Positions 15,085 through 39,951 of a stretch of DNA of 51,534 nucleotides are shown one piece after another. A program made the position numbers and the translations under genes. Under the pieces are notes generated by a model that had not been told where the DNA came from, made no database searches, and saw only the letters and a list, made by a program, of their open reading frames with translations. Each line of letters opens with the position of its first letter. Position 1 is the stretch's first letter. The stretch is from Clostridia bacterium (GTDB lineage Bacteria > Bacillota > Clostridia > Oscillospirales > CAG-272), in assembly GCA_017646005.1 (NCBI GenBank), contig JAGCNJ010000040.1, positions 1 through 51,534 of the forward strand, given 5' to 3'.

Positions 15085-15104
15085 TGACCGCCTATCGGTC
15101 TGAC

Positions 15105-16730: not shown

Positions 16731-16731
16731 T

Positions 16732-18902: not shown

Positions 18903-18965
18903 TCTGCCACCTCCCCTTTATCTTTACATGGTATAGTACCCGATTTTATAATATAATTATTTATA

Positions 18966-18994
18966 ATTATACCACAAATCTAAAGCAATTTCAA
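18966..18994 (-). promoter_or_regulatory. sigmaA promoter of the cdaA operon
   Basis: TTGAAA-17 nt-TATAAT with an extended TG. Confidence 0.7.
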
Positions 18995-19148
18995 ATACAA
19001 TCTATGAATTTTAAATAATTTATATATCTTTTTACGTGCGGTGTAATATTTTTTGAGTTTCGCTCACATTCCATTATTTTTTAGCGCAAACAGCGCAAAA
19101 ATAAGTTGTTTCAACGGCGCTCAAAACAGCATTTTCGGCAATTTGAAC

Positions 19149-19189
19149 AAAAAATCACGGCAGGCTTACATTCAAAGCCTGCCGTGATT
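19149..19189 (-). terminator. Intrinsic terminator after the P-loop ATPase gene
   Basis: 15-bp inverted repeat aatcacggcaggctt / aagcctgccgtgatt with a T-tract on the minus strand. Confidence 0.8.
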
Positions 19190-19195
19190 CACGTT

Positions 19196-20257: not shown

Positions 20258-20331
20258 TGTCAAAGCTCCTGTATTTATGGCGTATATACGCCTGTTACAG
20301 TTTATGAAGCAACGCTTGATTCTGACAAAAG

Positions 20332-20357
20332 AAAAAGCGCACCGAAGTGCGCTTTTT
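20332..20357 (-). terminator. Intrinsic terminator after the phosphatase-dockerin gene
   Basis: aaaaagcgcac-cgaa-gtgcgcttttt hairpin 8 nt past the stop. Confidence 0.8.
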
Positions 20358-20365
20358 GACATTAT

Positions 20366-23300
20366 TTATCCAACGAGCGGAAGTGTTTCATATCCTGACC
20401 AGGATGCAAGGTGTCTTGCGAGTATTACGCTGTCACCTGACGTGATGGTACTGTCACCGTCCATATTACAGTACTCTGCCCATACGGAAACGTCATATCC
20501 GGTCCAGTTTGCAAGATAACGGCTTAAGATAACCGAGTCGGTAGAACCGATAACGCCGTCAGCATCCACATCGCCTGCTCTCATAACGGGGATCTCTTCG
20601 CTCTGACCAAAGCTGTTTGCTCCATATACCTTTGCCATAAAGCGTGCAACGTCGATATTTTCTATCGGTCCTCCCGCAAGAGCATCAACACCTGCGCCGA
20701 ATGCGTAGAGAGGCACGTTTCTGTTCGTGTGCACTTTTGTCGTGAATCTGTATCCGACACCAAATGACAGTTCGCTGTTATCGGCTGTTATTCCGCCCGT
20801 TTCGTGGTCAGCAGTAACTATAAGCGCGGTATCCGGGTGAAGAATTACAAACTGTGAAGCATAGGCGATAGCATCGTTGAATCGCTTTACGTTACTTACG
20901 ATAGAAAGCGCGTAATTAGCGTTTACAGCATCAAGACCACCGTGCGAATCCATACCACCGTCTTCAATCATAGCAAAGAAACGGGAACCATTTTCACTTA
21001 TCTTTTTAAGTGCTTTCTTCGTATGTTCTGTGAGTCCGTTTCCAACCGAGCCCGCACAGTAATCAAGTGCACCGCTTACGACAAGAGCATCAATATCTGC
21101 CTGAATCTCATCGTAGTTGGTTCTGTTATCATTATGCACAAAGAAGCTTGCAGGCGTAGCACCCGTGATTGCATCGTTTGTAACTACCGCAAGCTCTGCT
21201 CCGTTTTCATAAGCGAGCTCACTTACATGCTTAACATCATTTCCGTCCTTGTCCTTACCAACCTTTGCAGTGTAAGTCTTGTATCCGGTAGAAAGAGCTG
21301 TTGCTGAGGCCGCGCTGTCCGTATAGCCGGGATCAGTCTTACCCTTTAACACGTTATCTATTACACCCTGATGTCTTGTTATCTGTCTTTCTGCTACGGG
21401 GAAATCCTGTGCAACAAATTTATCAAGGCCGTTTGCCAGTGCCATATTGATATGGTTATACCCCATTCCGTCACCGATCATTATGATAACATTTTCAGCC
21501 TTTTCCGCAAAACCTGCAAAAGTCTTTTTGCTTGCAGTTTTGGGAAGCGTCGTAATATTGATGCTTCCGCCCTCATTTGATTCTATATATTCCTGTGTGA
21601 ATGCGGCAACGCTCTGCGCGGTGTAAAGTCCGTTCTCGCTCATAACGACCTTATTGCCGTTTTTCACAAGAACATATTCGTTCGCACCAAGTCTTATGCC
21701 TGTGCTCGATTCACTTCGATTTGTATTACCGACAAGTATTTCGTAATCACTTTCAGCTGTTTTATCGGAAACTATCTCGGGAATACAATTCAGGTTTGAA
21801 GAAATATAATCCGCCAACAATTCTGCGGCATACTTTGAGTAAAGACTGCAGTTCTCCGGTATTACTATTTTATAATTACCGATATCAACTCCGTCAATCG
21901 CAATGTTGTCAAAGCGGTATGACGCAACAGTTACGTCAACAGTTCTTGTTATTACGGGAGCTGTGGAAAGTCCTGCATTAGCCTTGATTGTAAGTCTTGC
22001 ATTGCCGCCGTCTATAGCCTTGATCCTTCCGTTTACAATATCAACTATCTCAGGATTATCCGAGCTTACCGATACGTTCTCGAACGAACCGTAGGGTGAA
22101 ACGTTAACAGACAGGTCAAGCTCGCTGCCTTCCATTACCGTTATTGATGAAACCTCATTTCCCTTGCTTGTCACTTTAAGCGATTCGACCGCAACGTTAC
22201 TCCAATTTTTCTGAGCAAATGCTGCAGCATCAGCTTCTTTCTCGAAGAATGCAACGTATTCAAGCAAGAAGTAGGAGCCTGCATTTGCACCTCCCGTATA
22301 CTGCCAGGGCTTGAAGCGAAGCTTCTGACCGGTCATAGCCTCTGTGGGAGTATAGTTACTTGAGCCGGTTAATATGAAGTCATCACGTTTAATTACAGCC
22401 GACTTCCATTCACCCTTTGATGCTGCCGGCTTTGTACCCATAAAGAATGAATATGCGGTGATATCAGAGCCGTAAACGCCCTGCACCGATGCCTTATCGG
22501 CATAGAAGCTTGTATCAAGGTTATTTGCGTTCTGTGACTGGAAATAGCTTGCCACCCAATAAGGATACTTTGCCATATTGATTCCGCTCACAGACTGTGT
22601 AATGTTTATTTCGGGGTTTTCTCCCTCTATTGCATCAAAGCGTGCGTATATCTTTTTCTGTGCGAAATCGTATACTGTTCTTACGTTTGAGGTAGCGCTT
22701 GTCTGTGATATTTCAAAAAGCTCTTCTCCGCTGAGAATGATATGATCAACTCTCATCTCATAATTAAGCGTTGAGGGGATAATAACAGTTTTGTTTTCGG
22801 CATCAACGTAAGTATTATAGAAATACCAGAGTGCAGTTACGGTATCCTCCGCAGTGCCTCCGACTATAAAAATACGCTTACTGCTCTTGTCGTACTTAAC
22901 TATATATTCACCCGCAACAAGACCCTGAGAAAGTGCTCCCGAACGGTTTGTGTTTCCGATCACGATTTCCTTTGCCACGGGATCAGCAGCTGCATCTGAC
23001 GTATCAGATGCCGTGGGAATATTTCCGACACCCAGATCATATCGCATAGCATTTGCAAGATTAGCAAGCTCAGGCGTAATTATATCTGAAATATCGTCGT
23101 CGTATATGATTGTGTATTCGGCGTTGCCGTCGGCTACTACCGTAATATCGCCTTCATCCTCTTCAGGCTTGTTAAGGCTTTCGATATATTCCTTTGCCGC
23201 GCTTTCGCTCTTGAAAAATGCAACGTAATCAATTGCAAAATACGAGCCATCCGTTGCGTTGCTCGTCCAGGGCTTGAATCGCAGATACTGACCTGTCATC

Positions 23301-24343
23301 GATGACACGGGAGGACATCCCTCTGTGCCATAGAAATTATCTCTTACAAGAATTGTCGTCTTCCATTCACCGTTTGATCCCTCGGGATGAGGATTTGAGT
23401 AAAAAGAGTTTGTGATATCCTGCTCGTTCGGGTATGCCGCCTGTACAGACTGGAGATCGGCCTTGAAGGTAGCATCGAGCTTTGATGCATTTTGTGACTG
23501 ATAATAGCTTACCACCCAATAAGGATACGCCGCGAGATTAACTCCGGAATCCTTCTGTGTGATGCTGATCTCGGGCTTTGTTCCGGACACTGCCGCAAAT
23601 TTAACGTAGGTTTTTCCGGATACCGTATCGTTCACAAGTGAGGATGTGGCATTCTTGAGCAATGATGCCGCTGCAAAAAGTGCCTGTCCGCTGACCACCT
23701 TGCTGTCTTCGAGATTCAGGCTGTTAATATAATCCTCGGCAGCCTGCTCACTCTTAAAAAATCCAACGTATTCAAGCGCAAAGTAAGAGCCGTCCTTGGC
23801 ATTGCTCGACCAGGGCTTGAAGCGGAGATACTGTCCTGTCATAGCAGAGGTAGGCGGATAGTCTGCCGAATCAGCGTAAAAGCCGTCACGCTTAAGTACT
23901 ACCGTCTTCCATTCACCGTTCGAAGCTGCCGGCTGATCCTGTCCGCTGCAATAAAACGAGTTTGTAAGTCCCGCATCGGGGTATACTGTGTTTATGGACG
24001 TAAGATCCGCCTTGAACGTAGTATCAAGTCGGGTTGCAGTCTGTGACTGATAATAGCTGACTACCCAATAAGGATATTCGGCTAAGTTTACACCGGACGC
24101 CCCCTGTGTGATGCTTATTTCGGGCTTTGTTCCCGTAGTTGGTACAAACTTCACATAGGTTCTGCCCTGTGCGTCTGTCTCTACGCTTTTGCTTGCAACG
24201 TTCTTTATGGAAGTCGCGTTTGAAAGCGCAGTGCCGGCTAAAATTATGCTGTCTGCTGTTGCTCCCGAAACGTTAACCGGAAATGCGCAAAGCTGCATAA
24301 CAAGAATAACGGCGATCAGAATAATTGACATCGTCTTTTTCAT
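20366..24343 (-). CDS. Large secreted multidomain alkaline-phosphatase-family protein with three unknown repeat domains, two GH20-domain-2-like modules, an Ig-like domain and a C-terminal dockerin-like module
   Basis: Signal peptide. AP motifs IGDGMG, TDSAASATA, ATPA, TADHETGG and HT..NVPLYAFG. Two EI.(I/V)GNTNR modules. C-terminal duplicated GDVDADG..DSVIL.R.LA.W. Confidence 0.85.
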   Translation of the reverse strand: MKKTMSIILIAVILVMQLCAFPVNVSGATADSIILAGTALSNATSIKNVASKSVETDAQGRTYVKFVPTTGTKPEISITQGASGVNLAEYPYWVVSYYQSQTATRLDTTFKADLTSINTVYPDAGLTNSFYCSGQDQPAASNGEWKTVVLKRDGFYADSADYPPTSAMTGQYLRFKPWSSNAKDGSYFALEYVGFFKSEQAAEDYINSLNLEDSKVVSGQALFAAASLLKNATSSLVNDTVSGKTYVKFAAVSGTKPEISITQKDSGVNLAAYPYWVVSYYQSQNASKLDATFKADLQSVQAAYPNEQDITNSFYSNPHPEGSNGEWKTTILVRDNFYGTEGCPPVSSMTGQYLRFKPWTSNATDGSYFAIDYVAFFKSESAAKEYIESLNKPEEDEGDITVVADGNAEYTIIYDDDISDIITPELANLANAMRYDLGVGNIPTASDTSDAAADPVAKEIVIGNTNRSGALSQGLVAGEYIVKYDKSSKRIFIVGGTAEDTVTALWYFYNTYVDAENKTVIIPSTLNYEMRVDHIILSGEELFEISQTSATSNVRTVYDFAQKKIYARFDAIEGENPEINITQSVSGINMAKYPYWVASYFQSQNANNLDTSFYADKASVQGVYGSDITAYSFFMGTKPAASKGEWKSAVIKRDDFILTGSSNYTPTEAMTGQKLRFKPWQYTGGANAGSYFLLEYVAFFEKEADAAAFAQKNWSNVAVESLKVTSKGNEVSSITVMEGSELDLSVNVSPYGSFENVSVSSDNPEIVDIVNGRIKAIDGGNARLTIKANAGLSTAPVITRTVDVTVASYRFDNIAIDGVDIGNYKIVIPENCSLYSKYAAELLADYISSNLNCIPEIVSDKTAESDYEILVGNTNRSESSTGIRLGANEYVLVKNGNKVVMSENGLYTAQSVAAFTQEYIESNEGGSINITTLPKTASKKTFAGFAEKAENVIIMIGDGMGYNHINMALANGLDKFVAQDFPVAERQITRHQGVIDNVLKGKTDPGYTDSAASATALSTGYKTYTAKVGKDKDGNDVKHVSELAYENGAELAVVTNDAITGATPASFFVHNDNRTNYDEIQADIDALVVSGALDYCAGSVGNGLTEHTKKALKKISENGSRFFAMIEDGGMDSHGGLDAVNANYALSIVSNVKRFNDAIAYASQFVILHPDTALIVTADHETGGITADNSELSFGVGYRFTTKVHTNRNVPLYAFGAGVDALAGGPIENIDVARFMAKVYGANSFGQSEEIPVMRAGDVDADGVIGSTDSVILSRYLANWTGYDVSVWAEYCNMDGDSTITSGDSVILARHLASWSGYETLPLVG
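22215..24256 (-). repeat. Three intragenic copies of a ~175-aa domain (approx. 23720-24256, 23170-23710, 22215-22750)
   Basis: Each copy has PEI.ITQ..SG(V/I)N(L/M)A.YPYWV.SY.QSQ...GEWK...MTGQ.LRFKPW...SYF...YV.FF. Confidence 0.85.
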
Positions 24344-24368
24344 GTTTTCCCTCCGAAAATATAATTTA

Positions 24369-24397
24369 TTGACAAAATGCTCTCTGTATGGTATAAT
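24369..24397 (+). promoter_or_regulatory. Consensus sigmaA promoter of the AraC gene
   Basis: TTGACA-17 nt-TATAAT with an extended TG. Confidence 0.8.
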
Positions 24398-24423
24398 TCA
24401 ACAAGAACACTTCTTCAATTTAA

Positions 24424-24452
24424 AGTATAAACATTTAACGCACCCTTGTCAA
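24424..24452 (-). promoter_or_regulatory. sigmaA promoter of the phosphatase-dockerin gene
   Basis: Minus strand reads TTGACA-17 nt-TATACT. Confidence 0.72.
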
Positions 24453-24486
24453 CGGGAATATCTTGCGACGAACAGGAAAATATTGC

Positions 24487-25281
24487 ATGTATACACAAAA
24501 ATTAAAAGTGAACACCGGTCTTCCGATCTTCCCCATATCTGCAGCTCTTCTTGTTAAGCAGACGCCGATATCTATGCCCGCAGGCAGCAGAAGACACCAT
24601 GTTCTCTGGGTAAATGACGGAGAAATGAGCCTTACGATCAACAACGTAACACATACACTGCAAAAAAACACGGGTATTATTTTCCGCGCCAATACACCCA
24701 TAAAATATTTCAGCGCAGACGACCGCGAGCTTACAACCTCTTGGATCACCTTTAAGGGCGGCGATCAGCTTATTGAATACAGCTGTATAGAAAAATACCT
24801 TATTTTCAAATGTCCTCCCGATATGGATGCAAGAGCGCAGGAGCTTCACAACTTCATTATACAGGAAAATCCGGATATACTCAAATCATCCGAAACATAC
24901 CGATGGGTTTCAGAGTTGCTCAACTGCATCGCAAAAAAAGAACCGAGCGTTTCGGAAATGGTAAGGGCTTATCTTTATCAGAATTTTTTCAAGCAGCTTT
25001 CTCTTGACGATATAGCGGCTGCCGTGGGGATAAACAAATTTTCGCTCTGCCGTATATATAAAAATGAAACCGGATACCAGATAATATACGATCTCAAGCG
25101 CATAAGATGCGAAAAAGCCTCTCACCTGCTTGTACACACTGCCATGTCCATACAGGAGATAGGGCACGTATGTGGATATGTTGATTCCGACTACTTCAGC
25201 AAAAATTTCAAGAGTTATATGAAATGCACGCCAAGCGAATACAGGAAGAAGTGCAACAGCAAAGAGAATATACAGGAATAA
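24487..25281 (+). CDS. AraC-family transcriptional regulator
   Basis: N-terminal cupin-like domain; LSLDDIAAAVGINKFSLCRIYK and IQEIGHVCGYVDSDYFSKNFKSYMKCTPSEYRK double HTH. Start ATG 24487. Confidence 0.92.
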   Translation: MYTQKLKVNTGLPIFPISAALLVKQTPISMPAGSRRHHVLWVNDGEMSLTINNVTHTLQKNTGIIFRANTPIKYFSADDRELTTSWITFKGGDQLIEYSCIEKYLIFKCPPDMDARAQELHNFIIQENPDILKSSETYRWVSELLNCIAKKEPSVSEMVRAYLYQNFFKQLSLDDIAAAVGINKFSLCRIYKNETGYQIIYDLKRIRCEKASHLLVHTAMSIQEIGHVCGYVDSDYFSKNFKSYMKCTPSEYRKKCNSKENIQE

Positions 25282-25312
25282 AAAAAGAGGTCACCAAGTG
25301 ACCTCTTTTTTT
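25280..25312. terminator. Bidirectional terminator between the AraC gene and the carboxypeptidase gene
   Basis: aaaaaagaggtcac-caa-gtgacctctttttt between convergent stops. Confidence 0.85.
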
Positions 25313-26273
25313 ATGTAAAATTATCATACAGATACAAGGTATCGTCGACCTGCTTTTGCTCGGTACGGTGATTGCCCGGTCCGCCTAAAACCACAGACAC
25401 ATATCTGTTTCCGTTATTTTCTCCATATGTGGCAAGGCAAAGTCCGGCATCATATGTAAAGCCGGTTTTTCCGCCGTATATCATTGCTTCTTCAGGGGTT
25501 TTGCCGCCAAGCTTTGAAAAGACCGTGCTTTTCATTGTAAATCCGTCGGGATGCTTATTTGTCGGTCTGACAGTATACCTCTGTGTGCTTGATATTTCGC
25601 GGAACTGCTCATTTTCAAGTGCATAAATAAGTATCTGTGCCATTTCAGCCGCATTCGAATAGTGACCTTCTGCATCAAAGCCGTATATGTTTTCAAAATG
25701 AGTATTTGAAAGTCCCATTTCAAGAGCCTTCGCGTTCATCATATCAACAAGCGCGCTGTCGCTTCCCGCAATATACTCTGCCGCGGCGGCTGCCGCCTCC
25801 GCGCCCGACGGAAGCATTATTCCGTATAACAGATCACGCAGAGTTACCTTTTCACCCGGCAGAAAGCCTGCCATTGACGCACCCTCGCGATACAGCTTAT
25901 CGTACAGCTTCGGAGAAACAGTAACGCTCGCATCAAGATCCTGTGCATTTTCAAGTATCACAATCGCAGTCATTATTTTTGTAAGAGATGCGGGTGCCAC
26001 TCTTGCACCGCTATCCTTTTCCGCTATGACCGAGTGCGGCTCTGACAAGCAGAAGTAAGCATTCCTTACGACAAGCTCATCGTCAAGAGATACCGATGCA
26101 CTTTCAGGCTGTATCTGAGAGCTTACGGCATATACGCTTGTGTTTTCAAGCATAGTCTTTGGCGTGCCCAAAAGTATATCGGAATTTTGGGGTGCAAATA
26201 TAATACAGATTATTACAAGCGACACCAGACCTGCAAGCTTCAGACCAAGAAATCTGTTTTTACTTCTTTTCAT
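25311..26273 (-). CDS. D-alanyl-D-alanine carboxypeptidase (peptidase S11)
   Basis: N-terminal TM helix, PASLTKIMT (SxxK), MLPSGAEAA (SxN variant) and GGKTGFT. Confidence 0.9.
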   Translation of the reverse strand: MKRSKNRFLGLKLAGLVSLVIICIIFAPQNSDILLGTPKTMLENTSVYAVSSQIQPESASVSLDDELVVRNAYFCLSEPHSVIAEKDSGARVAPASLTKIMTAIVILENAQDLDASVTVSPKLYDKLYREGASMAGFLPGEKVTLRDLLYGIMLPSGAEAAAAAAEYIAGSDSALVDMMNAKALEMGLSNTHFENIYGFDAEGHYSNAAEMAQILIYALENEQFREISSTQRYTVRPTNKHPDGFTMKSTVFSKLGGKTPEEAMIYGGKTGFTYDAGLCLATYGENNGNRYVSVVLGGPGNHRTEQKQVDDTLYLYDNFT

Positions 26274-26814
26274 TTCTCATTTTATCAACCTTCAGCACGG
26301 CACAGACCGTTTTGCCGTCGGTGATCTCCCCATTCAAAACCTTCTGTACAAGCATATCGAACGGAAGCTTCTCAACGCTCAGAAATTCGTCCTCGTCAAG
26401 ATCCTGCGCTCCAAGACTCAAATCGGTAGCATAGTAAAGATATATTACCTCGCTCAAAAGCGCAGGGCTTGGAATATACTCACCAAGATATGTCACGCTT
26501 GCGCTTGTAAGACCTGTTTCCTCTCTGAGCTCACGCATAGCCGCCTCAAGATGATCCTCTTCTGCAAAATCAAGCTTTCCCGCAGGAATTTCGGTTATAA
26601 CACGCCCGTGAGGATATCTGTACTGATTAACGATATAAGCGTTATCGTCCTTATCTATGGCAAGTACGGCAACAGCTCCGTTATGCTTGAGATATTCGCG
26701 GGTCGATCTTTCGCCGTTGGGAAGCAATATCTCGTCAAGATAGAGATGTGCAACCACCCCGTCAAATACAAGCCTTGAGCTTATCTGCTTTTCTATGAGT
26801 TTTTCTGTATTCAT
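26260..26814 (-). CDS. nudF: NUDIX hydrolase, ADP-ribose pyrophosphatase
   Basis: QYRYP, EIPAGKLD...AMRELREETG Nudix box, DEDEFL and ITDGKT. Confidence 0.9.
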   Translation of the reverse strand: MNTEKLIEKQISSRLVFDGVVAHLYLDEILLPNGERSTREYLKHNGAVAVLAIDKDDNAYIVNQYRYPHGRVITEIPAGKLDFAEEDHLEAAMRELREETGLTSASVTYLGEYIPSPALLSEVIYLYYATDLSLGAQDLDEDEFLSVEKLPFDMLVQKVLNGEITDGKTVCAVLKVDKMRNEKK

Positions 26815-26819
26815 TCCGT

Positions 26820-28541
26820 TTATCTCACCCAGGTCTTTGTATATTCCTTGTAAGCTGACAGCTTTTCAAGCGTCTTTTCCTCGCTGTCCGAGCAGGCAAG
26901 TATATACACCTTTACCTTGGGCTCAGTGCCTGAGGGTCGGATAACAAGTATGTCTCCGTTATCAAGGATAAAGTAAAGAACGTTTGACTTCGGAAGCCCT
27001 GTTGAGCTTATCTTATCACTTCCCGCAACCCTTACGGTATCTGCAAGATAGTCGCGAAATTCAACGACCTTGTATCCGCACATTTTAACAGGCGGATCGT
27101 TTCTTAAATCATCCATGAGCTTCTGCATACGCTCGTTACCGTCAAGGCCGTCCATAACGATGCTCTTGGATGCCTCCATATAGTAGCCGTAGCGGTCATA
27201 AAGCTTATCCATGGCATCAGCAAGAGTCATTCCCTTGCCGCGGTAATAAGCTGCCATTTCTGCTATAAGCATTGTTGCTACCACCGCATCCTTATCGCGT
27301 GCGTACGTGCCCTTGAGATAACCGTAGCTTTCCTCAAAGCCAAGCACGTAGCTGTCATTACCTGTCACTTCAAGCTTCTTGATTACTTCACCTATGAATT
27401 TGAAGCCTGTAAGCACGTTAAATATCCTTATATTATGAGCCTCGCATATCTTTGCGGCAAGCTCGGTTGTTACAATAGTTTTTACAACGTAAGGATTAAC
27501 CGGCATAGTACCCGTTTCCTCATATGCCGTTGCAAGATATTCGATAAGAAGCGCGCCGACCTGGTTACCTGTTATCGTCTTAAAGCCTCCGTCTGCGCAT
27601 TTTATCATAATACCGACACGGTCTGCGTCAGGGTCTGTCGCGATTATAAGGTCACATCCGTGTTCGAAGGCTACCTCTATCCCCTCTTCAAACACCTCCG
27701 GAAATTCAGGGTTCGGGAAACGTATTTCGGGAAAATTACCGTCGGGCTTCATCTGTTTTTTAACGGTATATACGTTCTTAAATCCTGCTCTTGCAAGAAC
27801 CTCCGGAACTATTCTGTAGCCTGTTCCGCAAAGAGGTGTATACACAACGCCGAAATCATCCGCAACAGCCTTTACCGCATTGGGATACACCGCCTCGGCG
27901 AGCACCTTTTCCATATATTTTTCATCAAAGTCCTTGCCCAGGATTATTATCTTACCCTCTGCAACAGCCTTATCGAAGTCTGCAAATTTCGCGCCGTTTA
28001 ACACGTCGATCTTATCAATGAAATCGGAGACCGTCTGCGCGTGGTCGGGCGGAAGCTGAGCGCCATCCTCCCAATAAGCCTTATATCCGTTATATTCCTT
28101 GGGATTATGCGATGCTGTAATATTTACACCTGCAATACATCCGAGCTCGCGTACCGCAAAGGAAAGGACGGGTGTGGGTCGAAGTTCGTCGAAAATATAG
28201 GTTGTAAGACCGTTTGCGGCAAAAACCGATGCTGTGGTCTTGGCAAAAAGCTCCGAGTTATTACGAGAATCGTAAGCAACGACAACGGGTCTCTTTCCGT
28301 TACATTCCTTGTTTATAAGATCGGCAAAGCCCTGAGTTGCCTGTGCGACCGTATATACGTTCATCGCGTTAAGACCCGCCTTCATGGTGCCGCGAAGTCC
28401 CGCGGTACCGAATTCAAGCCTTTTTGAAAAGCGGTATTTTATCTCGTCATCGTTTCCTTCAATCGCAAGAAGCTCCTTCTTTGTTACTTCATCGACATTA
28501 TCACTTTCAAGCCAATATCTGTAATTTTCCTTGTAGCTCAC
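26820..28541 (-). CDS. pgm: Phosphoglucomutase/phosphomannomutase
   Basis: FGTAGLRG, TASHNP, DPDADR, GFEESYG and RPSGTEPK. GTG start with GGAGG SD. Confidence 0.95.
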   Translation of the reverse strand: MSYKENYRYWLESDNVDEVTKKELLAIEGNDDEIKYRFSKRLEFGTAGLRGTMKAGLNAMNVYTVAQATQGFADLINKECNGKRPVVVAYDSRNNSELFAKTTASVFAANGLTTYIFDELRPTPVLSFAVRELGCIAGVNITASHNPKEYNGYKAYWEDGAQLPPDHAQTVSDFIDKIDVLNGAKFADFDKAVAEGKIIILGKDFDEKYMEKVLAEAVYPNAVKAVADDFGVVYTPLCGTGYRIVPEVLARAGFKNVYTVKKQMKPDGNFPEIRFPNPEFPEVFEEGIEVAFEHGCDLIIATDPDADRVGIMIKCADGGFKTITGNQVGALLIEYLATAYEETGTMPVNPYVVKTIVTTELAAKICEAHNIRIFNVLTGFKFIGEVIKKLEVTGNDSYVLGFEESYGYLKGTYARDKDAVVATMLIAEMAAYYRGKGMTLADAMDKLYDRYGYYMEASKSIVMDGLDGNERMQKLMDDLRNDPPVKMCGYKVVEFRDYLADTVRVAGSDKISSTGLPKSNVLYFILDNGDILVIRPSGTEPKVKVYILACSDSEEKTLEKLSAYKEYTKTWVR

Positions 28542-28564
28542 TGTATTTTCCTCCGTAACTTATC

Positions 28565-28822
28565 TCAGTTGTTTTCAAGCTCAAGCTTAAGCGCGGTCGC
28601 TAACTGGTCAGGGCAGGACGTTCTCTTGAATCCGCACTTTATCCCCTCGAGTCGCTTTATAACGTCCTGTGCATCCATTCCGACGACAAGACTTGCGATA
28701 CCGTGGGTATTTCCGTCGCATCCGCCGATAAATTTCACGCTTTCGATTATATTTCCGTCAAGCTCTATTTCTATTGCACGGGAGCAGGTTCCCTGAGTTT
28801 TATAATTTAATGTTCTTTTCAT
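28565..28822 (-). CDS. TSCPD-domain protein (TIGR03905-like, four Cys)
   Basis: GTCSR, GGCDGN and GIKCGFKRTSCPDQLA. Confidence 0.88.
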   Translation of the reverse strand: MKRTLNYKTQGTCSRAIEIELDGNIIESVKFIGGCDGNTHGIASLVVGMDAQDVIKRLEGIKCGFKRTSCPDQLATALKLELENN

Positions 28823-28844
28823 AATTACGTCCTTTCATTAAGCC

Positions 28845-31648: not shown

Positions 31649-31704
31649 TTTTGAGAATCCTTTCGTTACATAAACATCGGAAACGACACCGATATACAGA
31701 TAAT

Positions 31705-31732
31705 ATTATACCATAATTTTACGAAATTTCAA
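31705..31732 (-). promoter_or_regulatory. sigmaA promoter of the htpG operon
   Basis: TTGAAA-16 nt-TATAAT with an extended TG. No CIRCE element seen. Confidence 0.6.
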
Positions 31733-31909
31733 GTACGCGCAGCAATATTTAATAATTTATTATAATTTTCCCGAAGTCCGATTGACCGCGCCGCAGATGT
31801 AAATTTTTCGTAAATATCTCATCTTCCGCTGTCATAAACTATTGATATATGTTAAAATTGTTTTATATCCCGCACTTAACAACACAAGTTACGGAAAGGC
31901 TTCAAAACT

Positions 31910-34900
31910 ATGAAGAGATTTTTTTGCACCATTATAGCTCTCTTGATTTTACTGACTTCTCTGCCGGTATTTGCATCGGAAGCTGAGACATCCAAATATG
32001 TTCAGATTCCGGCTACCGAGCTTTTTACTTACATTGTAAAGTATACGTTCAAAAGCACACTTGAGCTTGAAGAGGCGGCGTCCTTTTCAGACAGCATTCC
32101 TTATATACACTCAACCCTTGAGCCGGGAACATATAACAACAATCAGGGCGTGCTGGAGATAAAAGCTGCAGATGTTGGCATCAATATGCTCGAATACCCT
32201 TTTGTAAAGCTCGAATACCGCACCGATTCACCGTACAAAACCAAAGATATAACCATATATTCATCAAAGGGTGAAAATTGGAAAGATCCCAAGGATCCTC
32301 ATACCGCGGACGGTGAATTTCACGATATAATCTTTGATGTACGCAAGCTAAACGATGTAGAAGAAAAAATCCCAACGTACGAGGACGGAGTGAACATAAG
32401 ACTCCGCCTCAAGCCTCTTGGCTCCGGCACAAGAACACTTGATGCTTCACATTATTATGATATTAAATATATAGCATTTTTCAAAACCGAGGCCGATGCT
32501 CTTGCGCACACGTACAATTATAATATGCTTGACGACGATTATGCAGGTGCATTTAAGACTCCTATAGAATACCTCCCCCTGACAAACGACGCAGAGGATG
32601 AAATACTTTCGGGCGCGGAATCACTCAAAAAGAAGATAATCAATTCGGAAAGCATTTCACCCGACAGCATATCCGGCACAGTATACTACGTTTCAAACAA
32701 CGGAAACGATAACAATTCAGGCACAAGCCCGGACGATGCACTTGCAACGATTTCCGCAGTAAACGCCCTTAAGTTAAATCCGGGAGACGGTGTGTTCTTT
32801 GAGCGCGGAAGCCTGTTCAGAGGTCCTACATTAAGTATGAAGGCAGGCGTAACATACTCCTCATACGGCGAGGGCGAAAAGCCGAAAATATGGCGTTCTC
32901 TCGACGGTGTCGGCAAGTAAAAATGGCATCAGACTCCGTATAAAAACGTATGGCAGTTTGAAACCACTCTTTCCCGGGGCGAGGACGTCGGAAACATTAT
33001 TTTCAACGGCGGTGAAGCCTGGGGAATAAAGATCATCAAGGAGGATGATAATACAAGACAGAACCAGGATCTTGTTTACAACGGCTATGAAAGCTTTGTA
33101 TCTTCCGGCAATATGCCATTTATAGATGAAAGGGATCTCTCAAACGAGCTTGAATTCTGGCACAGTACAAACGACGGTAACGTTTATCTTTACTACAGTC
33201 ACGGCAACCCCGGAGAGCTTTTTGATTCGATTGAACTTTCAAGAAAAGGGCATTGCGCAAACGGCAGTGCTGACAATGTAACTGTCGACAATATAGCTTT
33301 CGGCTACACAGGCTCTCACGGTGTAGGCGTAGGAAATGCAAAAAACTTTAAGGTACAGTATTGCACGTTTGAATACGTTGGAGGTTCTCTCCAATACACC
33401 GACGGCCGCGGCACCCGATACGGAAACGCTGTGGAGAACTGGGCGTCCTGCGACGGCTTTGTTATAGACCACTGTTACGCTACCCAGACCTATGACTGTT
33501 GCTATACAACGCAGTGGCAGGGCTCGGGTTCAACAAGCGATATCATAATGCAGAACGTTGTATTTTCAAACACTGTCAGCGAATACAGCAACAGCGGTCC
33601 CGAGGTATGGCTTGCAGCTAATGACAACGATACAACACATACATATATGATAAAGGATATGGATGCGTACAACAACTACGTTCTTTACGGCGGTTACGGC
33701 TGGAGCCATCAGCGTACCAATAAGGACGGTAACTTCTTCTACGGCGGATCTGCGGGAGCGACTACTGTATTTGACAACGTTACGTATCACGATAATATCT
33801 TCTTCAAGGCAACGCACCTTGCCGTAAAAGCCCGTTACTCCAAAAAGGGCTACGGGTACGATTTCACAAACAACGTTTTCGTTATGGCAGAGGGACAGCA
33901 GATGGTCGAAACCGGAATAAATCTTAATGATTGCTCCGGTCCGGTCACAAGGTACAAGTACAATAAAAGCTACATCAGAACTCTCATTTACTTCGGATTT
34001 TTCACAGACAGCACATTCTATCATTACGATATTGAAGACGCGGCGATCCCGATGCCCGAAAATGACTATCCTTATACCGAGGGCTTTGAGTATGTGACTA
34101 TACCAACGGATATTAAGCGCGGTGATTATGAGATCATAACAGCCGAGCAGCTTCTTGAATGGGCATCTTCCTCGCAATTTAACAATATGCCTTATTCCAA
34201 GGAACTTGTAGCTGACGAAAACGGTATCAATTATTTCAGACTCAATTCAAAGGAAGGGACCTATAAGGACGGAGAATGTACCTACACGTTACCACTAAGC
34301 TCGCTCGGGCAAAATATTGAAGTTAAAAAATTTCCCTTCATTAAAATAGGTTATAAAACGAATATCCAGAGCGACAATGTCTCGGTGTTCAATTATTACA
34401 CCCAATACAATTCCAAAACGAAGCGCCTTTGGGGTCCCACCATATATCGCGCTTCAAATGAAGAGCCGCAAAGCACAATAATCAAGGTCAAGGGTTCAAC
34501 CAGCGGCGGAGAAAGTATTTCAAGCTTTGACTGGAACAAGATAAACGACGGCGCTATATATGAAAAGCTTTATTTAAAGCCCTGGGGAGCGCAGACAATC
34601 ACCGTTCCTGCGGGTGAATATTACGATATCTCATATATCGCCTTCTTTGAAAATATTAATGACGCTATGTTCTTTGAATATCCTGAACGAATCACCATCT
34701 GCGGAGATGTCAACGACGACAAAAGCGTTGATATAGCTGATGAGATACTCTTATCCCGTTATAATTCAAGCATGCCGGGATATCTTCATCTTGCTAATAT
34801 CCGCGCCGGAGATCTCAACGCAGACAACTTCGTTTCGGTTATTGACTCTGTAATCCTTGCACGACACATAGCAAACTGGCACGATTATCAAACTCTTCCC

Positions 34901-34918
34901 TACAAAACAGAAGATTAA
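31910..34918 (+). pseudogene. Secreted right-handed beta-helix protein with two unknown domains and a dockerin-like module, interrupted by one in-frame TAA at 32918-32920
   Basis: Track ORFs 31910..32920 and 33113..34918 are in the same frame. The gap translates openly (GK*KWHQTPYKNVWQF...DVGNIIFNGGEAWGIK...YNGYESF) and aligns with the intact paralog 36757..39909. Confidence 0.85.
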
Positions 34919-34937
34919 ACGAAAGGATTCAAAACAT

Positions 34938-36581
34938 ATGAATAAGCGCACATTTATCCCGGCGCAGGCGATTATTGTTATAATAATTGCGTTATTTCTT
35001 ACCCTTTCTGTCTTTGCAAGTCCGACCGAAATAATACCTGATGGCTTCATCGGGGTTTACAATGCAATTGATCTGACAAGGATGTTACCTGACGACAATT
35101 ATATCCTGCTCGATGATATTGATATGACCGGCGTAAGCTTTACACCGATCGGCACCTCAGCTGCTCCCTTCACCGGTATTTTTGACGGAAACGGACATAC
35201 CATAGAAGGGCTCAGCATATCTTCAAATGCACCGTATAGTGCAATGTTTGCATACGCTGACAATGCTGAAATAAAAGATCTGAAGCTTGAGAACGCAAGC
35301 ATAATCATAAACGCATCAAGCAAGACTGTTTACGCAGCACCCATATGCGCAAGCGCGTCAAACGGCACGGTAATTTCAGGTTGCAGCGTCAGCGCTGTAG
35401 CAGACATCACGGCAAGCACCGACGTATATGCCGCGGGTATATGTGCCTATTCAAACGGTGCTCATATCAAGTCCTCTGTTGCTGACGTTGACATCAGCGT
35501 GACCACGACAAAAAATATTTCTTCTATAGGCGGTATCGCAGGCTATCTGTTTGCCGATTCATCTGTAACCGATTGCGAAAACTATGGCTCACTTTCGGGA
35601 ATTTCTGCCGACGAAAGCTATATCGGCGGTATAATAGGTATATCAAAGCGCGACCTTAACAACACCTCCAAGGCAAAGCCTGCCGTGTCGGACTCATTTA
35701 ATTTCGCAGACATAAGCGTTTCAACAAAAAAGAACATTACCGTAAGCTGTGCGGGTATTGCCGCAAAGGGCGAAAATCTTACAGTAAGCGGATGTAAAAA
35801 CACGGGAGATATCACGGCAAGCTGTCCTGTCGGTGCCATTGCCGCGGGCATATCGGGATATCAATCGAGAAATAACATAAACGAATGCGCAAATCTCGGA
35901 AACGTATCGGCAACAAGTACAGGCGCTGATGCATATGCCGGCGGAATCGTCGGTGAGGCAAACGTCGCAACAATCAGTAGCTCATACAACAACGGCTCTG
36001 TTTTTGCAAGCGGAAAGCAAAGCACTAACGCAGGCGGTATTTTCGGGCACGGTACTCAGTTCAACAAGATTGAATACTGCTATAATTCAGGAGTAAATCT
36101 ATCAGAAGCGGGAAGTAACATCGGTACTCTTATAGGCTCAGCCTCGTACAACGATACGTGCACCACGCTGTATACACTTGAAAGCACTTCTCATCCTGCC
36201 ATAGGAAACCGTATTGATGAAAACGCGGTAACGCTTCTTTCATCCACTCAAATGAAGAATGCCGAAAGCTTCGAGGGCTTTGATTTCGTTAATGTATGGT
36301 ATATGCCGACCGACAGCGAGACAGGATATCCCGAGCTTGTAATATTCAAGCCTGCTGAGCCCGTCATCATACTTTACGGTGATGTCGACAACAACGGTAC
36401 GGTAGATTCAAACGACAGCGTAGTATTAGCACGCTATCTTGCCAAGTGGACAGGATACGATGAAATCAATGAAGAAGATTCCGATCTGAATTCGGATACT
36501 GTCGTTGATTCAACAGACAGCGTAATCCTTTCAAGGCACCTCGCCAAATGGACCGGCTATGATACCCTGCCCTTAAAATAG
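34938..36581 (+). CDS. Secreted GLUG-motif-type beta-helix protein with a C-terminal dockerin-like module
   Basis: Signal peptide, YILLDDIDM..FTPIG..FTGIFDGNGHTI, repeated (A/I)GGIxG and C.N.G.(I/V) units, FDFVNVW..GYPEL, then GDVDNNG..DSVVLARYLAKW twice. Confidence 0.82.
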   Translation: MNKRTFIPAQAIIVIIIALFLTLSVFASPTEIIPDGFIGVYNAIDLTRMLPDDNYILLDDIDMTGVSFTPIGTSAAPFTGIFDGNGHTIEGLSISSNAPYSAMFAYADNAEIKDLKLENASIIINASSKTVYAAPICASASNGTVISGCSVSAVADITASTDVYAAGICAYSNGAHIKSSVADVDISVTTTKNISSIGGIAGYLFADSSVTDCENYGSLSGISADESYIGGIIGISKRDLNNTSKAKPAVSDSFNFADISVSTKKNITVSCAGIAAKGENLTVSGCKNTGDITASCPVGAIAAGISGYQSRNNINECANLGNVSATSTGADAYAGGIVGEANVATISSSYNNGSVFASGKQSTNAGGIFGHGTQFNKIEYCYNSGVNLSEAGSNIGTLIGSASYNDTCTTLYTLESTSHPAIGNRIDENAVTLLSSTQMKNAESFEGFDFVNVWYMPTDSETGYPELVIFKPAEPVIILYGDVDNNGTVDSNDSVVLARYLAKWTGYDEINEEDSDLNSDTVVDSTDSVILSRHLAKWTGYDTLPLK

Positions 36582-36590
36582 AACAATCAA

Positions 36591-36629
36591 GATTACAGTA
36601 GCGATATTATCGCTACTGTAATCAATTTT
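36591..36629 (+). terminator. Long palindrome / probable terminator after the GLUG-dockerin gene
   Basis: gattacagtagcgata-t-tatcgctactgtaatc (16-bp arms) followed by aatttt. Confidence 0.6.
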
Positions 36630-36694
36630 CCGCATATAGGATATGCCCAAAACTTATATAAGGAAAACTTAATGTAAATTAACACGGATTCCAC

Positions 36695-36724
36695 TTTACT
36701 CGAGTCGATATGCAATGATATAAT
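36695..36724 (+). promoter_or_regulatory. Putative sigmaA promoter of the 1050-aa beta-helix gene
   Basis: TTTACT-18 nt-TATAAT with an extended TG; SD gaaagga before ATG 36757. Confidence 0.5.
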
Positions 36725-36756
36725 ATGCTCAATCGTAATAATGAAAGGAACAACCT

Positions 36757-39700
36757 ATGAAAAGGATAATTTGCGCTTTACTTGTAATATTCCTCGCGCT
36801 TTCCTATATCCCCACATATTCATCTGCCGCTGCAGACTACATTGAGCTTATGCCGTATGAAATAGTATCTTCGTATATGAGCATAGTCGATTTCGGATAT
36901 ACAATGGAGGGAATTGACACTGACCCTTACATTCATCTCACATCCAAGCCGGGCAGCTACAACAATAATAATTACTATTTAAGCTTCAAGGCTTCAATGC
37001 TTGGAATAAATATGCTTGACTATCCGATAATCAAGCTCGGTTATCGCACGGATTCTCCCTACAGTATGATAAATGCAAGTATAAAATCCGATGCGGGAGA
37101 AAACTATCCCAAGTCGCATACTGCTCACACTACCGACGGTAAATGGCACGACGTGGTGCTTGATATGACAACCTTTAATTCACAGGAAGGGACATTCCCC
37201 TCTTATGAGCAGGGTACGTCAATCAATCTTATCTTCAAGCCGCTCGGCTCGGGAAACAAGACATTTACAAAAGAGCACTATTACGACCTTAAGTATATAG
37301 CCTTTTTCAAGACAAAGGCTGACGCTGACGCTTACACCTACAGTTATAACAAAAATGAAGACAGCGGGATCGGCAAAGTAACAAAATACTCACCGCTTAC
37401 AAATTCTGTCGAAAACGCGATCCTTTCGGGCGCGGATGAGCTGATACAGGATATCCTGGATGCTCCCAACAATTCATATACCCCTACCGGAAGCGGAAAG
37501 ACATATTACGTTTCGGAAAAGCTTGGCAACAGCACAAACAACGGAACAAGTCAGAGCGCGCCGATAACGATAGCAAGGTTAAAGACTTTGTTAAGTAACA
37601 ATTCCATTCCCGAAGGCTCGGTAATTTTGTTCAAGCGCGGCGAATTATTCAGGGCAAACGGTACAATCAAGCTGACTGCACCCGGTCTGACACTTTCTGC
37701 TTACGGTGAAGGCGAAAAGCCTAAAATATATAACTCAATTGCAGGCGAAGGCAAAAGCAACTGGACCCGCACGTCTACCATGCACGTATGGAAATTCACC
37801 GGTAAAAGCCTGACCAAGAATCAGGACGTAGGAAACATCGTATTCAATAACGGTGAGGGTTGGGGTATCAAGGTATCCAAGAAAAACAAGACCGAAAACC
37901 TCAGAGTTGATATAGGTACGGTATTCAACGGTTACGAATCCTTTATGTCGGGCGGAGATCCTGCCGACGCAAGTGGAAACAGCTTCAGCCCATACAGGCA
38001 ATCCACACCGTTCACAGATCAGAGGGATCTTTCAAACAACCTCGAATTCTATCACAACTGGGATGACAACACCCTGTATTTGTACTACGATAAAGGCAAT
38101 CCCGGCAAGGTATTCGATTCAATCGAGATAGCTATCGGCAGCAACTTGTTGTATATGGGCTCTGCGGAAGCTGAGAATGTTACCGTAGACAACATCTCCT
38201 TTGCACATACGGGAAGACACGGTATTGGAATGCAGTACGGCAAAAATATTCTGATCAAGAATTGCACGTTTGCCTGGATCGGCGGATCGCTCCAGTATCC
38301 CGAAAATTATGAAACCGGAGATTCCGGAAAAACACGTCTCGGAAACGCCGTTGAAAACTGGGGCTCGTGCAGTAACTACACGATCGATCATTGCTATGCA
38401 ACCCAGATATACGACTGTTGCTTTACCACGCAGTACAGTATTGGCACCAACGACAGTATAACCAGTTCAAATTCGTTAGTGAAAATGAGTGACGTTACCT
38501 TCACAAACACCGTAAGCAGCTACAGCAACAGCGGTCCCGAGGTATGGCTTACAAACTCCTCACAATATGCCACCTCCGATAACTGCGACTGGTCGATAAA
38601 GAATCTCGAAGCAACGAACAACTACGTTCTCTACGGCGGATACGGCTGGGGACATCAGCGCTTTAACAAAGACAGTAATTTCTTCTACGGCGCTGTTCAG
38701 ATCGATAACACCACCTTATACGAAAACTGCGAATACTATGACAATTACTTTTTCAAGGCGAGACATACAGGAATAAAAGCGCGCTATGCAAAAAAAGACG
38801 GTCGTGAAAACAGCGGATACGATTTTCACGATAACACCTTTGTTATGGCTGAGGGACTGACTATTCTCCAAACCGGTAATAACCTGGATGACTGCTCAGG
38901 TACAACTACACATTATAAGTACGATCAAGCAACAATTTCCTCACTCGTTGCAAACGGTTTCTTCCCCGGAAGCGATTTCTACTATTACGATATAGCCGAT
39001 GCAGGCTTGCCGACGTCCGGAGCCGAATATCCGAGCGATCCGAATTACGACAGTTCAATAATAGTAGGCGAAATGCTCTTAGCAGAGGATCTGTCAGGTT
39101 ACGCAGACAGCCTTTCGTTTAACGGCATCGGATATTCAAGCTCACTCGTAACCGACGAAGACGGCGTTGACTACTTCAGAATAAACGCCGAAGCAGGTAG
39201 CTTTTCGGATGACCAATGCTATCTTGCAATACCGCTTGAATCACTCGGATACGGAATCAACGTGAAAACAAATCCCTATATTAAGCTCGCTTACAGAACG
39301 AATATTTCGGGCACAAATACACTTGCGGTCAACTATGTGGCACAGTATCCGATCAAGAACTTTTTCTTCACAACGAATTATGACGCAACGATTACAGGTC
39401 CTACACTTACAAAGGTATCCGACGGTACGCGTCAGAGTAGTACCATAAATATTGCAAATACCTCAACAGGCGGCACATACACCTCGTCAGGCTGGGACAG
39501 CACTTCAACAAAAACAATATCGGATTTCAGCTTCAATACTATTACCGACACCGCCAATTACAAGGAATTGCGGCTCAAGCTCTGGGGCGCAGGTGATGTA
39601 AGTCCCGTCGACGGTGAATACTTTGATATAGTTTATATTGCATTCTTCCCCGATGCGGAATCCGCAGAAAAATTTGAATACCCCTATGTTGAAAATCACC

Positions 39701-39909
39701 TTTACGGTGACGTAAACGGTGATGAAATTGTCGATTCAAACGACAGCGTAGTATTGGCACGCTTCCTTGCAAAATGGACAGGATATACCGAGATAAACGA
39801 AGATAATTCAAATCTCAACCAGGACACAGTTGTAGACTCAACAGATAGTGTAATTTTAGCCCGTTATCTTGCTAAATGGAGCGGATATGAGGTTCTGCCG
39901 ATCGGCTAA
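36757..39909 (+). CDS. Secreted right-handed parallel beta-helix (pectin-lyase-like fold) protein with two unknown domains and a dockerin-like module
   Basis: Signal peptide; TYYVS..GN..NNGTS..AP, FKRGELFR, AYGEGEKP, VTVDNISF..TGRHGI and GNAVENW; C-terminal duplicated GDVNGD..DSVVLARFLAKW. Confidence 0.85.
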   Translation: MKRIICALLVIFLALSYIPTYSSAAADYIELMPYEIVSSYMSIVDFGYTMEGIDTDPYIHLTSKPGSYNNNNYYLSFKASMLGINMLDYPIIKLGYRTDSPYSMINASIKSDAGENYPKSHTAHTTDGKWHDVVLDMTTFNSQEGTFPSYEQGTSINLIFKPLGSGNKTFTKEHYYDLKYIAFFKTKADADAYTYSYNKNEDSGIGKVTKYSPLTNSVENAILSGADELIQDILDAPNNSYTPTGSGKTYYVSEKLGNSTNNGTSQSAPITIARLKTLLSNNSIPEGSVILFKRGELFRANGTIKLTAPGLTLSAYGEGEKPKIYNSIAGEGKSNWTRTSTMHVWKFTGKSLTKNQDVGNIVFNNGEGWGIKVSKKNKTENLRVDIGTVFNGYESFMSGGDPADASGNSFSPYRQSTPFTDQRDLSNNLEFYHNWDDNTLYLYYDKGNPGKVFDSIEIAIGSNLLYMGSAEAENVTVDNISFAHTGRHGIGMQYGKNILIKNCTFAWIGGSLQYPENYETGDSGKTRLGNAVENWGSCSNYTIDHCYATQIYDCCFTTQYSIGTNDSITSSNSLVKMSDVTFTNTVSSYSNSGPEVWLTNSSQYATSDNCDWSIKNLEATNNYVLYGGYGWGHQRFNKDSNFFYGAVQIDNTTLYENCEYYDNYFFKARHTGIKARYAKKDGRENSGYDFHDNTFVMAEGLTILQTGNNLDDCSGTTTHYKYDQATISSLVANGFFPGSDFYYYDIADAGLPTSGAEYPSDPNYDSSIIVGEMLLAEDLSGYADSLSFNGIGYSSSLVTDEDGVDYFRINAEAGSFSDDQCYLAIPLESLGYGINVKTNPYIKLAYRTNISGTNTLAVNYVAQYPIKNFFFTTNYDATITGPTLTKVSDGTRQSSTINIANTSTGGTYTSSGWDSTSTKTISDFSFNTITDTANYKELRLKLWGAGDVSPVDGEYFDIVYIAFFPDAESAEKFEYPYVENHLYGDVNGDEIVDSNDSVVLARFLAKWTGYTEINEDNSNLNQDTVVDSTDSVILARYLAKWSGYEVLPIG

Positions 39910-39922: not shown

Positions 39923-39951
39923 AAAACGCCTGTCGTTATGACAGGCGTTTT
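39923..39951. terminator. Bidirectional terminator
   Basis: aaaacgcctgtc-gttat-gacaggcgtttt between convergent genes. Confidence 0.85.

Follow-up and report, generated by a model that had tools for sequence, protein, structure and literature searches.

Dockerin-bearing secreted proteins and their candidate cohesin partners in a gut Clostridia genome

A contig of 51,534 nucleotides from Clostridia bacterium (GTDB family CAG-272; assembly GCA_017646005.1, contig JAGCNJ010000040.1), referred to here in its whole length as the window, encodes four proteins that end in the same duplicated calcium-loop module, and this raises the question of what these modules bind. An earlier sequence-only reading had proposed that they are unusual dockerins of a non-cellulosomal extracellular complex or, alternatively, a C-terminal surface sorting tag that works without cohesins. 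The analysis described below indicates that they are type-I-like dockerins, which probably attach secreted, non-cellulolytic enzymes to cohesins encoded elsewhere in the same genome. This genome, designated G000, is a 77-contig assembly of 1.235 Mb and 51.6% completeness, in which the window is contig C22. For the sequence-only reading the outcome is mostly a correction, as the dockerin is of a standard type, the cohesins exist and the system is of a known kind.

The window dockerins and their relatives

The duplicated module, composed of calcium loops and helices, was found at the C-terminus of four open reading frames (ORFs), namely 20366-24343 on the minus strand and 33113-34918, 34938-36581 and 36757-39909 on the plus strand, in agreement with the shared module at two loci that had been described from the sequence. 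All four translations matched the Pfam family PF00404 (Dockerin_1) with 25.8, 27.4, 35.9 and 30.2 bits, respectively, against a Pfam cut-off of 22.9, and a six-frame scan of the genome recovered the same four sites with E values of 2e-10 to 2e-6 (Table 1). Both tandem repeats consist of an EF-hand-like calcium loop and a helix, D.[DN].[DN]....D....[LV].R, with acidic or amide residues at loop positions 1, 3, 5, 9 and 12, and the helix end R..A.W.GY is kept in both of them. In the alignment of ten modules of G000, residues R28, G35, Y36, R62, A65, W67 and Y70 are invariant, and W33 is conserved in nine. The first and second repeats share 13 to 22 of 26 residues in nine of the ten dockerins (15 to 17 in the three better-kept dockerins of the window). 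The most decayed dockerin is that of the gene 31910-34918, whose repeats share 8 of 26 residues, with a degraded first repeat from which the first Trp is gone. Dual-mode binding is known for type I dockerins, and the near-symmetry of the two repeats, as read from their sequences, fits such a dual binding mode.

The module had been regarded as an unusual variant, partly on account of its Trp-containing helix end and its YxxLP tail, and this view is not supported. Among solved structures, the nearest relative of the ten-module profile is the type I dockerin of Clostridium thermocellum CelS (1daq/2mte, E 2.2e-14), and the alignment shows that the CelS dockerin also ends in DTLPYK, so that the YxxLP tail is not new. 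The solved Amy dockerins of Ruminococcus bromii matched weakly (E 6.5e-6 to 3.7e-4), and the matches to Ruminococcus flavefaciens dockerins were also far weaker than that to CelS. Judged by its sequence, the dockerin appears to be only mildly variant, its distinctive part being the helix end A.W.GY. When 185,579 species genomes were scanned for this pattern, 20 loci were found in metagenome-assembled genomes (MAGs) from the guts of roe deer, reindeer, goat, sheep, buffalo and other animals, labelled as Clostridia, Faecousia, Ruminococcus, Oscillospiraceae or Lachnospiraceae. The W.GY form can also be observed in a "leucine-rich repeat protein [Ruminococcus bromii]" (name and species by NCBI/UniRef assignment), whose tail reads ...LTRYLAKWSGY...LTRHLAKWQGYETL; a term search of the text of a 2025 paper on R. 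bromii found no mention of a Trp motif in dockerins (PMC12663171). At E<=1e-10, the dockerin profile search returned at least 242 proteins from the 8,000 candidates that were scored. GDSL with Big_2, cohesin, leucine-rich repeat (LRR), transglutaminase-like and F5/8 type C domains were recurrent partners among the matches listed, and no glycoside hydrolase of families GH5, GH9 or GH48 (PF00150, PF00759, PF02011) was found on any of the 120 listed proteins with a window-type dockerin.

The dockerins are not confined to the window. A hidden Markov model (HMM) built from the four window modules and run against 9,653 six-frame ORFs of G000 identified 13 ORFs, and the Pfam six-frame scan also gave 13 dockerins over the cut-off. 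The HMM hits comprise the four window proteins (129-136 bits), six further C-terminal modules of the same type (76-92 bits) and three divergent internal ones (33-34 bits). Outside the window, dockerins were found on a GH78 alpha-L-rhamnosidase with F5/8 type C domains, on three SGNH/GDSL esterases with Big_2 domains, on a small Peptidase_M26_N-like protein, and on an adaptor that also carries a cohesin. Within the window, the cargo named from the sequence alone (a phosphatase, two beta-helix proteins and a GLUG-type protein) was borne out by PF00245, by an AlphaFold2 (AF2) model of the beta-helix, and by atlas likeness together with a weak Glug match; as had been noticed, none of these secreted dockerin proteins carries a cellulase domain.

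Cohesins, an SLH scaffoldin and competing explanations

Neither a cohesin nor an S-layer homology (SLH) match of G000 falls on contig C22, as the sequence-only reading had observed for the window. The cohesins lie elsewhere: six matches to PF00963 (Cohesin) exceeded the cut-off in five open frames, on contigs C45 (two), C47, C66, C77 and C20, and were confirmed on the translations, which gives six cohesin modules in five proteins. One of these proteins (L007, 745 aa) is an anchoring scaffoldin, in which a signal peptide is combined with two cohesins and three C-terminal SLH repeats (SLH E 7.1e-31). Another (L008, 304 aa, contig C47, 17462-18373) combines a cohesin with a Flg_new repeat and a window-type dockerin, and is an adaptor. 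Each of the other three (L009, L010 and L011) is a large protein with a single cohesin, to which L010 adds a GDSL esterase domain. The best matches of the cohesin profile are solved cohesins of anchoring scaffoldins (3ul4, E 3e-13; 5lxv, 3.7e-13; 4ums, 4.2e-13). The absence of LPxTG motifs noted for the window extends to the whole assembly, where no ORF longer than 150 aa was found to have one in its last 45 residues; SLH is therefore the anchor seen. Both the scaffoldin and the adaptor have counterparts in a genome of the same genus, G024, which contains a two-cohesin frame of 762 aa matching L007 and a cohesin and dockerin frame of 301 aa matching L008.

The association between the two module types was analyzed in a sample of 100 other genomes of the family, which were counted as dockerin-positive at E<=1e-8 and as cohesin-positive at E<=1e-5. 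Twenty-one genomes were dockerin-positive and 56 cohesin-positive. Cohesins were present in all 21 dockerin-positive genomes and in 35 of the remaining 79, a comparison between genomes that are related and not independent; among the relatives with multiple dockerins, cohesins were present in five of five. Co-folding of the first L007 cohesin with a window dockerin gave scores of 0.14 and 0.10 against a mark of 0.32, a result without controls that covers one of the six cohesins and counts neither for nor against binding.

Taken together, these modules suggest the following mechanism. The enzymes, if expressed, would be exported by the Sec pathway, as their signal peptides indicate, and the C-terminal dockerin would fold around Ca2+, as its loop residues predict. 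The dockerin could then dock on a cohesin in a non-covalent and probably Ca2+-bound manner, so that the SLH scaffoldin would fix up to two enzymes at a time to a cell-wall polymer. This arrangement could be lengthened or varied by the adaptor and by the proteins with one cohesin, and modules resembling carbohydrate-binding modules (CBMs), described below, may hold the enzymes on their glycan.

The proposal that the module is instead a cohesin-independent C-terminal sorting or wall-binding tag could draw on the lack of a cohesin within the window, and on the extra aromatic W.GY residues and the TLP tail, which could in principle contact something else. However, the module scores as a standard Dockerin_1, its TLP tail is common to the cohesin-binding CelS dockerin, and the adaptor joins a window-type dockerin to a cohesin. 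Given in addition the six cohesins of the genome, one SLH-anchored protein among their carriers, and the co-occurrence of dockerins and cohesins in 21 of 21 genomes, such a tag is very unlikely. We consider it still less credible that the dockerins serve a classical cellulosome or an amylosome, the cellulases or amylases of which would be encoded in the half of the genome that was not assembled. The low completeness of G000 and the occurrence of this dockerin type in R. bromii-named proteins would allow for it, but the genome of G024, which is 97% complete, contains no GH9 match, as is also the case for G000. No GH48 match was found in either genome, a weak negative since the control genomes gave none either. 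One GH5 gene is present in each of them, the G000 copy on a contig without a dockerin, and GH13 was found on contigs C1 and C62 of G000 and C158, C63 and C169 of G024, none of which has a dockerin match. The listed proteins with dockerins of the same type carry no PF00150, PF00759 or PF02011 domain, as mentioned above, and no scaffoldin with more than two cohesins or with a CBM3 match was seen in an assembly from which half of the genome is missing. The description of the system as non-cellulosomal thus agrees with the enzyme inventory of both genomes.

A third possibility, compatible with surface attachment, is that the dockerins mainly build cell-free or substrate-bound complexes on the single cohesins of large, module-rich proteins, which would adhere to the substrate by their CBM-like modules, and not on the SLH scaffoldin. 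Three of the five cohesin proteins (on contigs C20, C77 and C66) have no SLH in their assembled part and carry two to five CBM-like modules, so that some complexes may be cell-free, and at least ten dockerins of the window type in G000 would have to share the two cohesins of the SLH scaffoldin. Both observations weigh against attachment of the enzymes to the cell surface as the general outcome, and two further points call for caution: the fusion of phosphatase and dockerin was not found in five related genomes (G024, G013, G089, G079 and G080), where the dockerin part alone was matched, so that the system does not include at least the phosphatase as a conserved component; and, as G000 is 51.6% complete, the inventory of dockerins and cohesins and the cargo list are partial. 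On the other side, two of the three proteins without SLH are cut by contig ends and may have lost an anchor, the two-cohesin SLH scaffoldin is conserved in G024, and SLH and dockerins exclude each other in paralogous proteins (see below), which suggests that they do equivalent jobs. We therefore regard predominantly cell-free complexes as rather unlikely, and attachment of the enzymes to cohesins, including those of the SLH scaffoldin, as the preferred explanation.

The system can be compared with three known ones. The best matches of the dockerin profile are the CelS, CelD and Xyn10B-type dockerins of C. (Acetivibrio) thermocellum (E 2e-14 to 6e-9), whose OlpA-type anchoring proteins share the cohesin likeness (3ul4) and the C-terminal triple SLH. 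In contrast to C. thermocellum, no GH9 or GH48, no dockerin-borne cellulase and no multi-cohesin CBM3 scaffoldin were seen here, the helices end in A.W.GY, and the cargo consists of phosphatase, beta-helix, GLUG, GH78 and SGNH proteins. The amylosome of R. bromii likewise belongs to gut Clostridia and includes a protein with both a cohesin and a dockerin, as does the present system. According to Ze et al. (2015, PMC4611034), four of the 26 R. bromii dockerins are on GH13 amylases and most are on non-glycosidase proteins, and dockerins of LRR and peptidase proteins are among the ligands of the anchored Sca2 cohesin. The LRR dockerin tested there is CBL14720.1, which may be a different protein from the LRR protein with the W.GY tail. 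Unlike in R. bromii, the anchor here is SLH and not a sortase signal, and no dockerin-borne GH13 was found. Finally, Minor et al. (2024, PMC11557425) describe "scaffoldin-containing" non-cellulolytic bacteria whose largest scaffoldin has two cohesins, and which also have SLH- (or membrane-)anchored single cohesins, monovalent cohesin and dockerin adaptors and non-cellulase dockerin cargo. The organisms differ (Lachnoclostridium sp. MSJ-17, Paenibacillus guangzhouensis, Iocasia and Limihaloglobus), and none is described there with a CBM-like module family or with an alternation of SLH and dockerin. Non-cellulosomal cohesin-dockerin display is thus already established, and the present system adds to that kind; among the titles and beginnings of abstracts searched, no description of a combined dockerin, alkaline phosphatase, SLH and rhamnosidase system was found. 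Cohesin-dockerin systems outside cellulose and starch degradation have been catalogued and are hardly understood.

Two observations on cohesin proteins can be added. Small adaptors (approximately 240-300 aa) with a cohesin and a dockerin form several distinct clusters in related metagenomic assemblies (P0171-P0173, P0176, P0187, P0198 and P0238), and some copies contain the InlB-type Flg_new repeat. Since the adaptor dockerin of G000 is of the same type as those of the enzymes, self-chaining of adaptors as in R. bromii Amy4 is conceivable. Contig C20 contains a cluster of genes (2998-12034 on the minus strand and 14844-20660 on the plus strand; loci L017, L018, L019 and L011) in which three beta-helix proteins have the divergent dockerin in mid-protein, after two CBM-like modules, and not at the C-terminus; one of the three genes is apparently split over two frames (8110-8946 and 6050-8134). 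Their neighbour is a protein of 1939 aa whose N-terminus carries a cohesin, and the internal dockerins may represent, with this neighbouring cohesin, a second cohesin-dockerin specificity.

A CBM-like module shared by dockerin and SLH proteins

Three of the four window proteins, like most of the cargo proteins with a dockerin, contain a repeat of approximately 165 aa that ends in Y(F/Y)D(I/L).Y(I/V)(A/G)FF.....A..(Y/F). An iterated HMM detected 100 copies of this module in 42 ORFs of G000, which comprise 46,669 residues or 11.3% of the assembled bases and almost all of which have signal peptides. The module matched no Pfam family at E<=5. The AF2 model of the middle copy of the phosphatase protein is a beta-sandwich with a pLDDT of 94.1, and its VIA Z scores were 12.0 to CBM22 (2w5f), 11.6 to CBM29, 11.2 to a laminarin-binding CBM and 10.3 to both CBM4 and CBM11; the best Foldseek match was CBM11 (E 3.8e-5, TM 0.49). 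The module thus has the same beta-jelly roll as CBM22, CBM29, CBM4, CBM11 and CBM61, with which it shares an identity of only 7-16%. It is proposed here as a candidate new CBM family.

The distribution of the module is narrow. Among 1.84 billion representative proteins, 606 matched it at E<=0.001 and 76 at E<=1e-30. In the family sample, many strong copies were found only in G024 (94 first-look candidates, at least 34 of which were scored, with up to 139 bits), and ten other genomes had one to five weak matches each, of at most 45.5 bits. Among the 97 genera sampled, the module is strongly expanded only in the source genus.

The anchors of the module proteins bear directly on the role of the dockerin. 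Of the 42 module ORFs, 21 have SLH, nine a dockerin, three a cohesin and nine none of these (several of the latter being contig-end fragments); SLH calls in module ORFs were confirmed by Pfam in 21 of the 27 that were re-scanned. SLH and dockerin never occur together in the 42 ORFs. In paralogues of the window beta-helix proteins, the beta-helix is followed by three SLH repeats and then by the C-terminal module, whereas the window copies lack these repeats and end in a dockerin. As the same protein family also occurs with a built-in SLH, the dockerin can be understood as an indirect alternative to the direct SLH anchor, and the exclusivity of the two suggests that they do equivalent jobs. In the best 150 module-bearing representatives from other samples, local HMMs found a dockerin in 40, SLH in 26, a cohesin in 12, both dockerin and SLH in two, and none in 79. 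The use of dockerin or SLH interchangeably by one enzyme family supports the idea that dockerins serve gut Clostridia as general tags for surface display. A limited literature search, which cannot show absence, found no description of this module family or of the alternation of SLH and dockerin in one paralogous family.

The enzyme set (a rhamnosidase, SGNH esterases, beta-helix proteins and phosphoesterases) would point to a complex non-cellulosic polymer, perhaps a glycan bearing rhamnose, acetyl or phosphate groups, which the cargo fits and does not identify. The substrates suggested by the sequence-only reading (phosphorylated or acidic glycans, mucus or the surface of another microbe) are possible candidates. 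A more far-reaching possibility, which we put forward tentatively and consider doubtful as a whole, is that this herbivore-gut genus possesses a distinct surface "glycan-stripping" apparatus of more than 40 large paralogous enzymes, encoded by approximately 11% of the assembled genome. Such an apparatus would be built from the CBM-like modules, attached to the cell wall by SLH itself or through dockerin, cohesin and SLH, and equipped with two surface phosphoesterases; its target would be a polymer bearing phosphate, rhamnose and acetyl groups (such as the wall or capsule polysaccharide of another microbe, or a complex pectin), and its specificity would be set by the module as a new CBM family. 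The genus-restricted CBM-like module and the divergent beta-helix enzymes could hold new ruminant-gut glycan specificities.

Among the other module proteins, L059 (contig C21, 9495-14438, minus strand) is a 1648-aa protein with four CBM-like modules, SLH and a calcineurin-like metallophosphoesterase domain, and represents a second surface phosphoesterase besides the dockerin-borne alkaline phosphatase. The re-scan of the module ORFs also revealed four more GDSL esterases.

Genes and other features of the window

The positions of the dockerins, the genes that encode them and the adjacent features are presented in Table 1.

Table 1. Features of the dockerin loci, with positions in the window.
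Feature	Position	Strand	Basis or remark
Terminator-like hairpin, phosphatase gene end	20357-20332	-	consensus match only
Gene for 1325-aa secreted protein: signal peptide, three CBM-like modules, alkaline phosphatase, C-terminal dockerin	20366-24343	-	translation, PF00245, PF00404
Dockerin module 1	20369-20596	-	PF00404, module HMM, alignment
Alkaline phosphatase domain (approximate bounds)	20609-21511	-	PF00245 from residue 949 onward
CBM-like modules of phosphatase protein (three copies)	23723-24244, 23180-23698, 22211-22738	-	iterated HMM, 138-145 bits each
Facing promoter-like sites between AraC-family and phosphatase genes	24369-24397; 24452-24424	+; -	consensus matches only, 12/12 and 11/12
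AraC-family regulator gene, divergent from phosphatase gene	24463-25281	+	PF12833/PF00165
Gene (1002 codons) for secreted beta-helix protein with N- and C-terminal CBM-like modules and dockerin	31910-34918	+	split by TAA at 32918-32920
CBM-like modules of 31910-34918 product	32006-32515, 34133-34681	+	iterated HMM
Dockerin module 2	34685-34915	+	PF00404, alignment; most divergent, first Trp lost
Gene for 547-aa secreted GLUG / Peptidase_M26_N-like protein with C-terminal dockerin	34938-36581	+	Pfam, atlas likeness
Dockerin module 3	36351-36578	+	PF00404, six-frame scan, alignment
Gene for 1050-aa secreted protein: CBM-like, beta-helix, CBM-like, dockerin	36757-39909	+	
CBM-like module of 36757-39909 product, N-terminal	36901-37350	+	iterated HMM
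Right-handed beta-helix of 36757-39909 product	37357-39072	+	AF2 model
CBM-like module of 36757-39909 product, C-terminal	39073-39681	+	iterated HMM
Dockerin module 4	39679-39906	+	PF00404, six-frame scan, alignment
Terminator-like hairpin ending the three-gene cluster	39923-39951	+	13-bp stem, T-rich tail; consensus match only

The phosphatase domain matched PF00245 with an E value of 2.8e-34 and 119.2 bits (cut-off 24.4), and an NCBIfam alkaline phosphatase model with an E value of 1e-21, far below the equivalog cut-off. DGMG, DSAAS and DHETGG, which we take to be PhoA-type motifs, are readable in its translation, as is TDSAASATA, presumably the PhoA active-site motif with the catalytic Ser. 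The divergent AraC-family gene may be a local regulator of the phosphatase-dockerin gene, a link suggested by the arrangement of the two genes; of the two promoter-like sites, that at 24452-24424 belongs to the phosphatase gene. Directly downstream of the phosphatase gene lies an ORF of 388 aa (19196-20362, minus strand) with a weak P-loop (NPHP3_N) likeness; the terminator-like hairpin falls within the 5' end annotated for it, which makes a start further downstream probable.

In the 1050-aa protein, the 572-aa centre matched no Pfam family at E<=5, and NCBIfam gave nothing for the window cargo beyond the dockerin and phosphatase likeness. The AF2 model of this centre (pLDDT 86.8, pTM 0.90) is a right-handed beta-helix, most similar to the BT_1002 glycoside hydrolase (Foldseek E 1.5e-9, VIA Z 25.7) and followed by an alginate lyase (24.5), the pectate lyase Pel9A (24.4), a rhamnogalacturonan lyase (23.6) and RbmB (23.4). 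As the VIA Z scores to beta-helix lyases and hydrolases lie close together (20-26), the model shows the fold and leaves the specificity undecided. The product of the gene 31910-34918 is 54% identical to this centre, and an NCBI record of a 1053-aa MAG "dockerin type I repeat-containing protein" is 82% identical to it. The 547-aa protein resembles GLUG / Peptidase_M26_N clusters (feature score 0.97, TM 0.83 with the atlas's own model), in addition to its weak Pfam Glug match.

The sequence-only reading had counted four signal-peptide proteins. Three of the ORFs have a signal peptide directly, and ORF 33113-34918 itself has none, being the back part of the gene that is split in the window by the in-frame TAA; the signal peptide of this gene is in the front part. 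When the contigs of four public sequencing runs were compared, position 32918 was G (GAA) and not T in all three that cover it (X1, X2 and X5), and the gene is intact in these three assemblies; X4 misses this position, and X4 and X5 cover 20 and 19 of 30 bins, respectively. As X1 and X2 are possibly the source of the window DNA, X5 is the sole independent reading at this site. Since the contigs read GAA, the TAA is an assembly variant or a minor allele and does not mark a fixed pseudogene, and the count of four signal-peptide proteins stands on this account. An interpretation of ORF 33113-34918 as a decayed pseudogene was softened by the GAA found at the stop site.

The organism is contained in animal-gut metagenomes, and in one bovine-gut run 10 of 17 pieces of the window were found at an identity of at least 99%. 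Among the 20 runs listed, no RNA run was found. The genes around the dockerin loci represent a housekeeping set of a spore-forming Firmicute.

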